Of a DNA stretch of 43,010 nt, positions 17,960-21,592 are shown piece after piece. Position numbers and translations under genes: made by a program. Location of the stretch: the IMG/VR virus record IMGVR_UViG_3300025011_000002; one strand, written 5' to 3'. This DNA is from a virus. Taxonomy: Duplodnaviria; Heunggongvirae; Uroviricota; Caudoviricetes. Position 1 is the first letter of the stretch; each line of letters opens with the position of its first letter. The notes beneath the pieces were generated by a model, which saw only the letters and a program-made list of their open reading frames with translations, had not been told where the DNA came from and did no database searches.

Positions 17960-20023
17960 TTATTTAATTTTCATAGCTCTAGGGAATTTGGCAACTGTTG
18001 TTTCCACATGTACAAAAGGCTTTTCTTTGCCTCCTTCTATTTCTGTTATAGAGGCAGTTATGTAAGATGATGCAAACTTATAGCAATGCACTATATTTTG
18101 TCTTAAACATGAGTTTGTTTCTGTTTGTGGAACATTTGTATAATTATCAATAACAATTTTATCTCTATTTACTATATCGCAACAGGCTTGCATGCATTTA
18201 TCACTACCACAACCATCCAAAATTGATGAACTACCGCCCATTGCTCTACAAGCTTGCTTTCTTTGCTTCATTATATCATGCGTAAAATCACCACAACTGC
18301 CATGCTTTACACTATATCTATCAAATAGTTCTGCCATCTGGTCAATTATAATGTTGCTTATAAATTCATTAGGTCTTGCTTCATTACTTGTAGTAACATA
18401 ATCCACACCAAATTTTTCACAAAGTTTTGGACTACTATTTACTTTATCTGCGCATAATTTTAAGCATTCATAACCGCCACAATTGCCTATTCTACCATCA
18501 CAAACGCAACCGTCTTCATCTGCAAATTCAAATACTTCTGCATTAAAATCACTACAATATGATGTGAATATATTAGGATTAAATTTTAACATTATTTCTT
18601 TTATCATTTCAGGTGTCATTATTTTGGCTTCTGGTTCTGTTGGTGCTAAGTTTGCCATATCACTTAATAATGTTTGATAATAATATTTCATCTCTGGTTC
18701 ATTAGATGTATCAATAAAGTAAATTGATGAATCTAAGTTATTATATCTAATATCAATAATATATCTTGATTCCATACTTTTATCTGCAATCTTTTCAAAA
18801 GCTTCTAGTCTTGTTTTAATTGTATCAAAGCCAAGAACAATATATTTTGATTTAACAAAGGTAAAATTAATATCTTGAAACTTTTTATCATATGATTTAA
18901 CATTATGCTTATTAAAAGTTGCTAATATAGCTCTTGCAGAATCAGATTTAGTTCTACCTATTTGTGGTGCTACATAAAATTGATTTCTTAAATTCTTTCT
19001 TTCAACTTTATCAAAATCAACTAAGGTATAGTTTTTTATTAATGCAGTTCTACCCAATTGTTCAATAATTGAAGTTCCTGCGCTTCCTAAACCCAAACAA
19101 ATAATATCTTTTTCTATTTTTTCTACATTTTCAACATCTTTTAAAACATCAGATGCTTTTATAGTTGAATAATAACTTGATTTATTTCTAACCCCTGCTG
19201 TTTTATAATGTTTATAGCGACTATTAGTTTTTGTTTTTATATAATATCCATCTTTTTCAATAGTATTTAAATCTAAATTTTCTAAAGCACTATCAACATT
19301 AGTAAGACAATCTTTGCAGATATTAAATATTAAACTAAAAGGACTAGCAGTTTTTTTAATGAAATCCCCACAATGATTACATTTTATAATGCTATCTGGT
19401 TCTGTTGCACTTAAATTTTCTTCAAGAAAATATCTTGAATTAGGAAAAGCATCACTAGCATTTGAATGTGTCATATTTAAAGCTAAACATTGTGTTGCAA
19501 CTTCTGGATTTTCAAATACATCACAAGGATGTATGTCGTTACAAAAGGCTTGTCCTTTAAATTCTAACATATTACCGTCTTTATCTTTTATTTTAAATGT
19601 TCTAACTGTTGTGTCAATATTATAATGACCAATCATTTTAGCATCTGATGAAACGAAAACATAATCCCAATGATTCATTGACAAAAATTGTATGTTTTCT
19701 ATTACTTCTTCTCTACCAGTTAAAGGTACAGTTAATGTTACGCTTCTTGGCGCATCTGTTAAAATACATTCTACTATATCATTATAATCTGATTTATAAG
19801 TAAAATGTCTTGCATTAACAGGTATTTTTTGTGATAAGAGGGCTTTTTCTTCAGCTATTTTATTCTCTCTTGCTTTTATTTCTTCTTCTGTTTCTTCTTT
19901 TACCATATTAACATCATTACCTATGCTGATAAATTCATCACATTCATCATCGTCTTCATCATCTAAATCGAAAATATCTGCTTCTATTTCTAATGCTCTT
20001 GCATCCAATTCTCTGTCTGTCAT
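17960..20023 (-). CDS. E1/ThiF-family Ubl-activating enzyme with N-terminal E2-like and Zn-ribbon domains
   Basis: ThiF core: ICLGLGSAG, VDFD, KNLRNQ, GRTK, GFD..TR (aa 306-455); candidate catalytic Cys639; CxxC pairs at aa 215-239. The E2-like call for aa 70-195 is inferred. Confidence 0.85.
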   Translation of the reverse strand: MTDRELDARALEIEADIFDLDDEDDDECDEFISIGNDVNMVKEETEEEIKARENKIAEEKALLSQKIPVNARHFTYKSDYNDIVECILTDAPRSVTLTVPLTGREEVIENIQFLSMNHWDYVFVSSDAKMIGHYNIDTTVRTFKIKDKDGNMLEFKGQAFCNDIHPCDVFENPEVATQCLALNMTHSNASDAFPNSRYFLEENLSATEPDSIIKCNHCGDFIKKTASPFSLIFNICKDCLTNVDSALENLDLNTIEKDGYYIKTKTNSRYKHYKTAGVRNKSSYYSTIKASDVLKDVENVEKIEKDIICLGLGSAGTSIIEQLGRTALIKNYTLVDFDKVERKNLRNQFYVAPQIGRTKSDSARAILATFNKHNVKSYDKKFQDINFTFVKSKYIVLGFDTIKTRLEAFEKIADKSMESRYIIDIRYNNLDSSIYFIDTSNEPEMKYYYQTLLSDMANLAPTEPEAKIMTPEMIKEIMLKFNPNIFTSYCSDFNAEVFEFADEDGCVCDGRIGNCGGYECLKLCADKVNSSPKLCEKFGVDYVTTSNEARPNEFISNIIIDQMAELFDRYSVKHGSCGDFTHDIMKQRKQACRAMGGSSSILDGCGSDKCMQACCDIVNRDKIVIDNYTNVPQTETNSCLRQNIVHCYKFASSYITASITEIEGGKEKPFVHVETTVAKFPRAMKIK

Positions 20024-20078
20024 TTTAACGCTCCTTTAAATTTTTATAACATCTAATATTCAAACTCTTTATATATTT

Positions 20079-20106
20079 ATTATAATGCAATATTTTTAAA
20101 AGTCAA
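20079..20106 (-). promoter_or_regulatory. sigma70-like promoter of the E1 gene
   Basis: TTGACT, 16-nt spacer, TATAAT. Confidence 0.65.
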
Positions 20107-20150
20107 GCCTTTTGAATAAAAAAATAAAATATTTACAATATGTAATAATA

Positions 20151-20179
20151 AAAAAGCCCTCTTAAATAGAGGGCTTTTT
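20151..20179. terminator. Intrinsic terminator after the Ubl gene
   Basis: aaaaagccctct-taaat-agagggcttttt, 12-bp stem. Confidence 0.85.
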
Positions 20180-20205
20180 TCATTCATCTTAAATTAACTT
20201 AAAAA

Positions 20206-20460
20206 TTAACCGTTTTCTTTAGAACCTGATACAAAAATTACCATATCTTTTGTAATAACTACATCATCTTCTAAAATTACGCCATCTGCAACAAGTTTAA
20301 TTTTTTCTTCAAGTTCAAGTTCTTCTTCAATAATTTCTTTTGCTTCTCCTACTGTTGAACCTACAGGTACTTCTACGCTTCCTGTTAGAGAAAAAATTGC
20401 TAATTTTGCAGGTACTTCTTCGCCTAATGTTCTTAGAAGGTCATTCACGTTTTCTGACAT
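20206..20460 (-). CDS. Ubiquitin-like (beta-grasp) protein ending in Gly
   Basis: Start re-set to ATG 20460 (AGGAG RBS). VEVPVGSTVGEAKEIIEEEL..KIKLVADGVILEDD..VIFVSGSKENG* parallels ubiquitin [39 protein letters not shown]. Confidence 0.8.
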   Translation of the reverse strand: MSENVNDLLRTLGEEVPAKLAIFSLTGSVEVPVGSTVGEAKEIIEEELELEEKIKLVADGVILEDDVVITKDMVIFVSGSKENG

Positions 20461-20482
20461 TTTCATTCTCCTTGTTTTTCTA

Positions 20483-20497
20483 CTCTTACTCTGTGCT
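20483..20497 (-). promoter_or_regulatory. 15-nt leader element shared with the JAB gene
   Basis: AGCACAGAGTAAGAG, identical to 21610-21624. Confidence 0.6.
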
Positions 20498-20558
20498 TAC
20501 TCTTGCCAAAACTATTGGACTTTTGTTTAATAATTTATTTAATTCATTCTATATTTTA

Positions 20559-20586
20559 ATTATATCATCTTTTAAAATTAAGTCAA
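20559..20586 (-). promoter_or_regulatory. sigma70-like promoter of the Ubl gene
   Basis: TTGACT, 16-nt spacer, TGA-TATAAT. Confidence 0.7.
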
Positions 20587-20617
20587 GTATTATTTTTTAT
20601 TTTTTTTAAAATTAATA

Positions 20618-21592
20618 TTACTTAACAAATGATGGTATTCCTGTAACTTTTTCATATTCTTCATCATCTAAAGAATCTAAATACTCTTGATATTGTTCAT
20701 CTGTCATTTCATCTGGCTCATCCTGATAATATACATATTCATCCGTATCATCCCATTGGTCATCTGCTACTTCGTATACATCATCTACGAATTTACCATC
20801 TCTATAGACTGTTTTGCTAGTAGACTTAGGATAATTATAGGATTGTGCATAATAAAATACTTGTCTTTCCTGTACTTTTTCTTCAATATCTTTTTGACAT
20901 TCTTTATATATAGTTTTTATTTCTTCCTCTGTTACGCCTAAAGAATAACTAACAGGGATATTTTTATAATAATCATTACCATAATAATTAGCGCAATATA
21001 TATTCTGTTGTTTATTAATAATCATTACAGGAAAGATATTATTAAGCCTAATTGCAAACATTGTTCTATAATTATTTGTATCTGTAAGTGATGGAGTAAC
21101 AGCCATATCTACATGGCTATGCCAATCTAATATCCATAATTGTCTTTCTTCTATAGGTAATGTATTTAAGAAATTTGGTATTGCTGTTGCTTCACATTCA
21201 CATTTTATTGAATCAACAATTTGTTTAAGGATTATAATATCTGTTATAATATCTTTACCTTCTATTTTTTCAACTTTACCAAGTCCTGTGATTTCTAAAT
21301 CACCTATTAAGTTTATATAAGCATTAATCTTTAACCATGCTTTTGGAGAAAATTCTAATCTTTCAATTGGTTTTTTACAAAACAAATTCTTTAGAAAACT
21401 TAAACATTTTGTAGGTTTAATATCTTTATAAGATACTTCTTTTTGCCTTGCAGGGGCTTTATATGATGATGCGTTTGATTTATTTGTAGATGTAGGGGTT
21501 GGTTTAGTGTTTATAGGCGCAACATTAACTGCTTTTTTATGTGCTGCATTTGGCAACCAATTATAGTTGGCTGAATAATTGTTATTAGACAT
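20618..21592 (-). CDS. JAB/MPN+ metalloprotease (deubiquitinase-like)
   Basis: Catalytic Glu in DLEITGLG and H-x-H-x7-S-x2-D in WHSHVDMAVTPSLTD; low-complexity N-terminus and acidic Tyr-rich C-terminus. Confidence 0.88.
   Translation of the reverse strand: MSNNNYSANYNWLPNAAHKKAVNVAPINTKPTPTSTNKSNASSYKAPARQKEVSYKDIKPTKCLSFLKNLFCKKPIERLEFSPKAWLKINAYINLIGDLEITGLGKVEKIEGKDIITDIIILKQIVDSIKCECEATAIPNFLNTLPIEERQLWILDWHSHVDMAVTPSLTDTNNYRTMFAIRLNNIFPVMIINKQQNIYCANYYGNDYYKNIPVSYSLGVTEEEIKTIYKECQKDIEEKVQERQVFYYAQSYNYPKSTSKTVYRDGKFVDDVYEVADDQWDDTDEYVYYQDEPDEMTDEQYQEYLDSLDDEEYEKVTGIPSFVK

Follow-up and report, generated by a model that had tools for sequence, protein, structure and literature searches.

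Does a bacteriophage carry ubiquitin-like conjugation machinery of its own and, if so, what would it use it for? This question is raised by IMG/VR virus record IMGVR_UViG_3300025011_000002, a 43,010-nucleotide stretch of Caudoviricetes DNA (hereafter the window). In it, three adjacent genes encode a JAB peptidase, a small ubiquitin-like protein (Ubl) and a protein of 687 amino acids (aa) in which a cysteine-bearing N-terminal domain (N-domain) precedes a ThiF/E1 adenylation domain. The initial annotation, made from the sequence alone, had described this locus as a JAB/MPN+ metalloprotease, an 84-aa beta-grasp protein and a ThiF/E1 enzyme with a probable N-terminal E2-like part. Our analysis indicates that the three genes form a conserved cassette in phage genomes, and we consider it fairly probable that they constitute a self-contained, phage-owned Ubl conjugation system.

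The list of open reading frames (ORFs) confirmed that the genes are consecutive and co-oriented on the minus strand, in the order JAB, Ubl and E1 fusion (Table 1). Public gene calls give the small protein 84 aa; the residue numbers used here refer to an 86-aa version that begins at an earlier start codon. The DNA that carries the cassette is that of an AT-rich phage (GC content ~25%) with portal and large terminase genes. The window sequence is present in groundwater metagenome runs, and no RNA run containing it was found among the public runs listed. Furthermore, the identical 687-aa protein is recorded on 21 contigs from several samples, 14 of which fall in the 50-200 kb class.

A search of a collection of 5.8 billion proteins revealed about 20 relatives of the E1 protein. 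We compared 13 independent loci, namely the window, L001, L003, L005, L007-L010, L012-L014, L017 and L018. Without exception, a JAB homologue lies directly upstream (phmmer E values of 1e-35 to 1e-47), and a small gene whose product has a K-x-N-G end is placed between the JAB and E1 genes. An all-against-all comparison of the flanks showed that JAB, Ubl and E1 are the only families common to all 13 loci, and that their order is constant. With so constant and exclusive an association, the triad is not a chance juxtaposition. The survey of gene neighbourhoods that the initial annotation had proposed thus found the three genes together in 13 independent phage-like loci. Their flanks encode T4-type RNA ligase, PNKP, RtcB, an archaeo-eukaryotic primase (AEP), UvrD and DnaB helicases, a Sak annealing protein and a RecE-like exonuclease. 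The cassette is a mobile three-gene module located in the early/replication region of otherwise unrelated phages. No conserved fourth gene that might encode an E3, a target or a regulator was common to all 13 loci; a ParB-like gene occurs in 7 of them, probably due to shared phage ancestry. No relative was found at the DNA level among GenBank phages, and the only protein-level matches there were crAss-like ThiF proteins (26-28% identity).

Two of these triads (L017, 6713-9482; L018, 6590-9254) are found on contigs of ~100 kb assigned to metagenome-assembled genomes of 'Candidatus Melainabacteria'. In L017, the neighbours of the triad are a ParB-like gene and genes for a Sak annealing protein, a RecE-like exonuclease and a DnaB helicase. 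Both contigs are probably phage or prophage DNA, and their binning may provide a host clue for that branch of the family. In two further loci, both from one metagenome (L014, 5301-6903; L015, 4250-6903), a frameshift splits the fusion gene where the N-domain meets the E1 part. Either the sequence contains an error at this point or the cassette is decaying in this lineage. Given that the frameshift falls exactly at the domain junction and is possibly a sequencing error, we did not use it as support in the form of a natural split of the fusion.

The 687-aa protein begins with an acidic, disordered segment (residues 1-65), followed by the cysteine-bearing domain (66-258) and by an adenylation domain (~290-460 and 638-687) into which an insertion (461-637) is placed. 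Pfam ThiF matched residues 301-406 with 45 bits, above its cut-off of 28.1, and also matched the first 20 homologues (20/20). Alignment of 78 full-length relatives showed that the adenylation residues G311xGSxG316, D336, D338, N344, N347, Q348, K359, D400, R405 and R426 are at least 91% conserved. We then used an AlphaFold2 model built from 20 homologues, with a predicted local distance difference test (pLDDT) score of 75 and confident for residues 90-460. Its E1 domain superposed on UBA3, the NEDD8 E1, with a Z score of 19.9 and a root-mean-square deviation (rmsd) of 2.4 over 197 residues (VIA-align, C-terminal half), and on MoeB, Atg7, BubCD, Cap2 and a bacterial E1-E2-Ubl complex with Z scores of 17.9-19.4. 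Foldseek comparison of the whole model likewise gave 3e-9 to NEDD8 and ubiquitin E1s. With a profile above the curated cut-off, intact adenylation motifs and an E1 fold in the model, the ThiF/E1 assignment stands.

Exactly two cysteines are invariant in 78/78 full-length relatives, C161 in the N-domain and C639 in the E1 part, and they are precisely the two that the initial annotation had named as candidate thioester sites. The model places C639 in a low-confidence, flexible loop immediately before the helix that re-enters the adenylation domain, as expected of a mobile E1 catalytic cysteine. The insertion occupies the position at which canonical E1s have their catalytic-cysteine domain; it contains 3 or 4 further cysteines conserved at 86-92%, which are probably structural.

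The Ubl terminates in S-K83-E-N85-G86, directly followed by the stop codon. G36, T38, K83 and G86 are its invariant residues, and the penultimate Asn is nearly invariant. Across the 13 loci the stop codon comes next after K-x-N-G in 11, after 2 more residues in L003 and after ~50 in L001. An AlphaFold2 model of moderate confidence (pLDDT 68) has the beta-beta-alpha-beta-beta order and a free tail. When it was compared with the PDB, all of the top 50 matches (50/50) were ubiquitin, ISG15, NEDD8, SUMO or Ubl domains, with template modelling (TM) scores of 0.51-0.63 and a best E value of 3.6e-4. The model is that of a ubiquitin-type beta-grasp, in agreement with the initial annotation, while sequence-profile matches to the ubiquitin, ThiS and MoaD families were absent above cut-off; an NCBIfam scan of the Ubl returned no match. 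In two relatives (L001, 5250-5924; L007, 5388-5882), an IF2_N-like helical domain and a long linker rich in Lys, Ala and Pro stand ahead of the Ubl, for a total of 164-224 aa. This basic linker suggests a tag tethered to nucleic acid.

Prediction of a complex between E1 residues 244-687 and the Ubl yielded a score of 0.68, compared to 0.00 for the best of 3 controls. This mark was attained by 58 of 80 solved complexes and by 2 of 110 mismatched pairs. The three runs agreed in at least 92% of contacts, with a partner pLDDT of at least 81. In the predicted complex, the Ubl tail (residues 78-86) lies in the E1 nucleotide site, where Gly86 contacts residue 315 of the glycine loop, D400, R426 and Y427. 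Whether the terminal glycine of the Ubl (Gly84 in the 84-aa numbering) occupies the adenylation site had been raised by the initial annotation, and the modelling predicts that it does. Because E1-Ubl complexes have already been solved, this result may reflect likeness to them, and the score is to be read as such a likeness and not as proof of binding.

The 324-aa JAB protein has a complete motif, E100...H158-S-H160-x7-S168-x2-D171, all five residues of which are invariant in 11 homologues. The JAMM motif on which its assignment as a JAB/MPN+ metalloprotease was based is real. A disordered-looking N-terminal segment of 75 aa precedes the core (~79-210), which is followed by an acidic C-terminal tail; at the position of this tail, relatives have a CxxC...CxxC zinc ribbon. 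PADLOC JAB models matched the protein with an E value of 3.7e-6, covering positions 12-133 of 157.

The N-domain of the fusion is a candidate E2-like transfer domain. H133, N135 and C161 are its sole invariant residues in the 78 sequences; His and Asn lie ~25 residues ahead of Cys, with a predicted beta hairpin in between. In the whole-protein model the domain has a pLDDT of ~90 and consists of a helix, a run of beta strands, the Cys and then helices, an order that lacks the alternation of a Rossmann fold. A CxxC...CxxC zinc ribbon (C215, C218, C236, C239) is found in about a third of relatives. The N-domain profile recovered 82 clusters (50% identity) among 1.84 billion proteins, and since nearly all of their members are 500-730 aa long, the domain occurs essentially only in front of this E1. 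Its position, its three invariant residues, the succession of its secondary structures and the analogy with Cap2 and BubBD lead us to regard it, with moderate confidence, as E2-like.

Together, these features suggest the following scheme. The E1 domain would bind ATP and the Ubl and adenylate Gly86, a step for which motifs and fold are present and the docking is predicted. The activated Ubl would then form a thioester on the invariant Cys639, in the mobile loop or insertion of the E1, and would subsequently pass to the invariant Cys161 of the fused N-domain acting as a built-in E2, where His133 and Asn135 may aid catalysis in the manner of the His-Pro-Asn motif of canonical E2s. From there, an isopeptide bond would link the Ubl to lysines of its protein targets inside the infected cell. 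As judged from its motif and from the extensions seen in relatives, JAB would strip these conjugates and, where residues follow the Gly, mature the precursor. Since the Ubl ends exactly at Gly in 11 of the 13 loci, JAB would mainly be a deconjugase, and the residues after Gly in L003 and L001 indicate that JAB there probably also matures the precursor. Cleavage by trypsin behind the invariant Lys83 would mark modified lysines with a Glu-Asn-Gly remnant, which should make targets findable by mass spectrometry.

Several observations weigh against this scheme, most of them concerning the N-domain. The initial annotation had judged an E2-like domain probable, and every sequence-based test of it was negative. 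The spacing from His/Asn to Cys is ~8 residues in canonical E2s vs ~25 in the N-domain. Neither Pfam UQ_con nor Prok-E2_A to E matched at E<=1 in 20 members, and the NCBIfam scan gave no E2 match for the domain. The 78-sequence profile found no E2 in the PDB, where the top match was PKR kinase at the noise level (E value of 0.09), and hhalign of the N-domain against two single Prok-E2_D proteins and a 4-sequence alignment gave probabilities below 1%. Moreover, BilD provides a precedent for fused N-domains being misleading, as its N-terminal 'prokaryotic E2 family C' domain turned out to be an adenylation domain that is inactive (PMC10557695). Elsewhere in the cassette, the E1 insertion (461-637) is poorly modelled, Pfam Prok-JAB gave the 324-aa protein 17.1 bits against a cut-off of 25, and Pfam ubiquitin matched the Ubl with an E value of only 0.043 (14 bits, cut-off 25.4). 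Finally, the JAB gene and the N-domain of L015 are broken as well, so that some lineages, at least, can do without the cassette.

Other approaches to the N-domain gave little. ESM Atlas searches by features and by structure were negative or uninformative, and fold searches with the whole model were dominated by the E1 domain. A Cap2 chain aligned over residues 66-687 with an rmsd of 18 A was not counted. Pfam Prok-E2_B, sought for a profile of the Cap2 E2, was absent from the 401 Bacillota genomes searched and from control genomes. We kept the E2-like reading of the N-domain because of its invariant Cys and because it has no alternating Rossmann pattern.

How else could the three proteins work? 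The fused domain might be substrate-recruiting, regulatory or a degenerate adenylation-like domain, with the E1 transferring the Ubl directly as in archaeal SAMP/UbaA, Thermus TtuB/TtuC and Urm1. This E2-less chemistry is in keeping with the lack of any sequence signal tying the N-domain to an E2 family, with the misnamed 'E2 family C' domain of BilD (PMC10557695) and with the abundance of minimal phage ThiF proteins that have no such domain. We nevertheless find it unlikely, as His, Asn and Cys being the sole invariant residues in 78 sequences is the pattern of catalytic transfer and not that of a scaffold, the modelled helix, strands and helices after Cys do not alternate as in a Rossmann fold, and the domain stands ahead of the E1 as it does in Cap2 and BubBD. 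A quite different chemistry would have the Ubl serve as a sulfur carrier, whose C-terminal thiocarboxylate, made by the E1, would supply the sulfur to thiolate tRNA, DNA or a cofactor, while JAB would trim adducts or set them free, as in CysO/Mec+ and QbsE/QbsD. The best named NCBIfam matches are indeed ThiF and MoeB models (E value of 6e-13), and sets of JAB, Ubl and E1 are known in sulfur pathways (PMC1779556). In contrast, scores of the ThiF, MoeB and UbaA models fall far under their cut-offs (best ThiF, 48.8 vs 159 bits), and the Ubl tail has one Gly after Lys-x-Asn and no Gly-Gly. Across all top 50 rows, the Ubl model resembles ubiquitin, ISG15 and NEDD8 and not ThiS or MoaD, and the second invariant Cys, on the fused domain, would have no role there. 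Gene content also speaks against it. Pfam and PHROGs scans, which covered the larger ORFs of the 43-kb window, detected no CD-NTase/cyclase, effector or sulfur-transfer gene, bearing out the statement of the initial annotation that none lies nearby; rhodanese, cysteine desulfurase, PP-loop thiolase, ThiG/ThiH and MoaE were missing from these ORFs and from the conserved flanks. Taken together, a sulfur-carrier role appears very improbable. Still less credible is an enzyme of the MccB, PaaA or AclA type, which would adenylate the C-terminus of the small protein to yield a modified product (e.g. a peptidyl-nucleotide or a cyclised end) and no conjugate. AclA, a ThiF-like enzyme solved with its substrate, came first when the family profile was compared with PDB sequences (E value of 3e-8), MccB and PaaA also match, and the penultimate Asn of the Ubl is nearly invariant. 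Yet the match is limited to the generic nucleotide-binding part, where UBA3 scores almost equally, the substrate is an 84-aa beta-grasp domain and no short peptide, and both the JAB isopeptidase and a second domain with an invariant Cys are foreign to those pathways.

If the cassette conjugates its Ubl to proteins, the question becomes whose proteins they are. Its location among early/replication genes and its movement between unrelated backbones make a function in conflict likely, and we think that it tags either host proteins, for takeover or neutralisation of defences, or proteins of rival phages. The roles put forward by the initial annotation (tagging of host proteins and counter-defence against CBASS or Bil) are purely speculative, and phage-carried defence against rival phages, absent from its list, is an equally open reading. 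An offensive use is possible, though less likely than not, in which host proteins (e.g. those of defence, replication or the nucleoid) would be tagged early in infection to take over the cell or disarm its immunity. Alternatively, with the same chemistry, the cassette could be a Bil-like defence that the phage carries and that tags structural proteins of competitors, resulting in superinfection exclusion. Bacterial Ubl systems such as Bil and Type II CBASS (an antiphage signalling system based on cyclic oligonucleotides) are anti-phage, and Bil tags a phage tail protein (PMC11601596, 10.1101/2023.09.04.556158). A defensive role would also suit a mobile accessory module that has promoter-like sites of its own, is common to otherwise unrelated phage backbones and has decayed in one lineage. 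On the other hand, the cassette is never in a setting resembling a defence island and always among early/replication genes, the larger ORFs of the window yielded no sensor or regulator typical of defence operons (CapW or CapH/CapP), and virion proteins of the phage itself would need to be spared. We hold this defensive use to be rather improbable, though one to be taken seriously, and no result separates it from the offensive one.

The features of the locus are listed in Table 1.

Table 1. Features of the JAB-Ubl-E1 locus, with positions counted from the first nucleotide of the window.
Feature	Position	Strand	Remarks
JAB/JAMM (MPN+) metallopeptidase gene	20618-21592	-	324 aa; motif and PADLOC JAB match
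Ubl gene	20206-20466	-	86 aa, or 84 aa from second ATG at 20460
E1 fusion gene	17960-20023	-	687 aa; Pfam ThiF, AlphaFold2 model, 78-sequence alignment
N-terminal domain, candidate E2-like transfer domain	19250-19828	-	Residues 66-258
Invariant residues of the N-domain	H133, 19625-19627; N135, 19619-19621; C161, 19541-19543	-	Alignment
Helical Cys-rich insertion in E1	18113-18643	-	Residues 461-637, ~180 aa; low model confidence
Cys639 codon	18107-18109	-	Only invariant cysteine of the E1 part; candidate E1 catalytic cysteine
Sigma-70-like promoter candidate before the Ubl gene	20559-20586	-	TTGACT, 16 nucleotides, TATAAT, with TG; 11/12; consensus match only
Sigma-70-like promoter candidate before the E1 gene	20079-20106	-	TTGACT, 16 nucleotides, TATAAT; 11/12
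Bidirectional intrinsic-terminator-like hairpin, Ubl-E1 gap	20150-20180		13-bp stem, flanking A and T runs
14-nucleotide leader motif GCACAGAGTAAGAG, copy 1	21610-21623	-	17 nucleotides ahead of the JAB start codon
14-nucleotide leader motif GCACAGAGTAAGAG, copy 2	20483-20496	-	16 nucleotides ahead of the first Ubl ATG

Each of the three genes had been credited with a strong host-type promoter. This is only partly the case: the sites before Ubl and E1 match the consensus closely, the site before JAB is weaker as judged by eye, and such sites are no more common in the AT-rich region than in shuffled sequences (43 vs 44.6). That the Ubl gene is equipped with a promoter-like site and a terminator of its own is in keeping with a substrate produced in excess of the enzymes acting on it. 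We also observed that the leaders of JAB and Ubl share GCACAGAGTAAGAG, of which the window contains only two exact copies (0.15 expected by chance). It may be a shared regulatory element of these two genes. Just upstream of it, AGTAAGAG is repeated in both leaders, and GCACAGAGTAAGAG is not found in the E1 leader.

Other genes of the window encode a ClpP-type protease, an M15 peptidase, an MT-A70 methylase, a PNKP phosphatase, a Mu Gam-like protein, an exonuclease and a phosphoesterase. The gene immediately downstream of E1, with its own promoter-like site, encodes a 233-aa protein (17091-17792, minus strand) containing repeated CxxC...CxxC zinc-finger-like units and showing a faint NinG-like match (E value of 2e-4); it is not kept beside the cassette in other loci. 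Further away (25911-27294, minus strand), a 256-aa protein with a match to a PHROG 'transposase' (E value of 3e-67) adjoins a short tyrosine recombinase of 184 aa (Phage_integrase, E value of 3e-25). This pair, located ~4 kb from the cassette, may be a mobile element inserted in the phage genome.

Bacterial Ubl conjugation has so far been characterised only as anti-phage equipment of the host (Type II CBASS, Bil) or in operons to which no role has been assigned (Bub). A compact, conserved and horizontally moving cassette carried by viruses would show that Ubl chemistry is used on both sides of this conflict. If the offensive reading were true, the cassette would be the bacterial-virus counterpart of the exploitation of ubiquitination by eukaryotic viruses, operating through an undescribed E2-like/E1 fusion. 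Furthermore, it would offer a minimal three-protein system in which to study E1-to-E2 transfer within one polypeptide, along with a new tag and a new peptidase family.

How does the cassette compare with known systems? Its layout is closest to those of Cap2/Cap3 and Type II Bub, and it is a member of neither of these, nor of Bil. Among the curated family thresholds of Pfam and NCBIfam, it reached only that of generic ThiF. Like Type II CBASS, it combines a Cys-bearing domain ahead of ThiF/E1 in one polypeptide with an adjacent JAB gene (Cap2 and Cap3), and its best PADLOC defence-model matches, albeit weak, are 'E1-E2' (Cap2-type) and 'JAB' (Cap3-type). The E1 domain superposes on that of Cap2 with a Z score of 18.4. 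In CBASS, however, the conjugated moiety is the C-terminus of the CD-NTase, whereas the cassette has a free Ubl and no cyclase or effector gene; the families conserved in the locus flanks include no CD-NTase or effector either, and the Ubl gene takes the place of the substrate. The E1 of the cassette also differs from Cap2 by its helical, Cys-rich insertion of ~180 aa and by being phage-encoded. Low scores were obtained with the NCBIfam models cap2_3 (21 bits, cut-off 320) and Cap3 (13 bits, cut-off 200), and PADLOC E1-E2 matched the Rossmann part only (24 bits).

With Type II Bub (BubA, BubBD and BubE; PMC11601596), the cassette shares a free Ubl and an E2-E1 fusion, as well as the presence of varied N-terminal extensions on the Ubls, seen here in L001 and L007. 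The E2 domains of Bub have an invariant Ser, Lys and His and use oxyester chemistry, and the operons encode a DUF6527 serine peptidase, usually without JAB (PMC11601596). In contrast, the invariant residues of the cassette are Cys161, His133 and Asn135, a JAB gene is found in every locus, and DUF6527 gave no match in the window.

Bil (BilA, BilB, BilC and BilD; PMC10557695, 10.1101/2023.09.04.556158) resembles the cassette in three respects: a Ubl whose conserved C-terminal Gly sometimes has a few residues after it, a JAB peptidase, and an E1 whose helical insertion bears cysteine. BilA resembles ubiquitin/ISG15-type domains (PMC10557695), as does the Ubl model of the cassette. Nevertheless, Bil has a separate E2 gene, BilB, whereas none of the three conserved families of the cassette is a stand-alone E2. 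The N-terminal part of the Bil E1 is an inactive adenylation domain, while the N-domain of the cassette carries an invariant Cys, and Bil is a bacterial defence operon, while the cassette resides in phage genomes.

A related gene set was observed in Bacillus-group chromosomes and large Bacillota plasmids (L019, 3858-8789; L020, 5332-8056; L021, 2277-4675; L022, 235-4816). In these operons, two small uncharacterised genes are accompanied by genes for a Prok-E2_D protein, a JAB/MPN protein and a ThiF protein. The plasmids that carry such an operon include pBH-BAT-167 of Sutcliffiella and pHSJD-312 of C. difficile, the latter with no annotated JAB. In two cases the operon follows dnaN, which encodes the sliding clamp, and in one of these it also follows a Rad52-family gene. 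It is a Bil-like set found on mobile elements beside replication/recombination genes. The Prok-E2_D-type E2s of these operons had no sequence match to the N-domain of the cassette.

The phage-encoded pairs of JAB and ThiF genes known from crAss-like and other phages are similar in ownership and arrangement, with JAB directly upstream of an E1-like gene in the replication module. In the crAss-like phages cr111_1 and cr128_1 (L023, 2658-4663; L024, 2531-4657), a protein of 381-415 aa with Prok-JAB as its N-terminal domain is encoded directly upstream of a minimal ThiF/E1 of 251-321 aa, and the pair sits between the DNA primase and uracil-DNA glycosylase (UDG) genes of the replication module. The record notes of phiCrAss001 indicate the same pair, annotated as 'metalloprotease domain' and 'thiamine biosynthesis protein'. 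The E1s of crAss-like and other phage pairs differ from that of the cassette in being minimal (220-380 aa) and in having neither the N-terminal Cys domain nor the insertion. Identity of the crAss-like proteins is 26-28% over the Rossmann core, and Pfam recognised no Ubl there. Sets of the JAB/E1 type located beside replication genes in both crAss-like phages and Bacillota plasmids hint at a wider, undescribed link to the replication modules of mobile elements.

The phage case described by Iyer et al. (2006) is only the Ubl-JAB pair of lambdoid tail-assembly genes. No description of a phage-encoded Ubl conjugation kit was found in the literature searched, whose incomplete coverage is no proof of absence; this agrees with the initial annotation, which knew of no characterised phage-encoded system of such architecture. 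Compared to Type II CBASS, Bub, Bil and the minimal phage pairs, the cassette consists of new protein families, brings them together in a new combination and has a new kind of owner, a phage.

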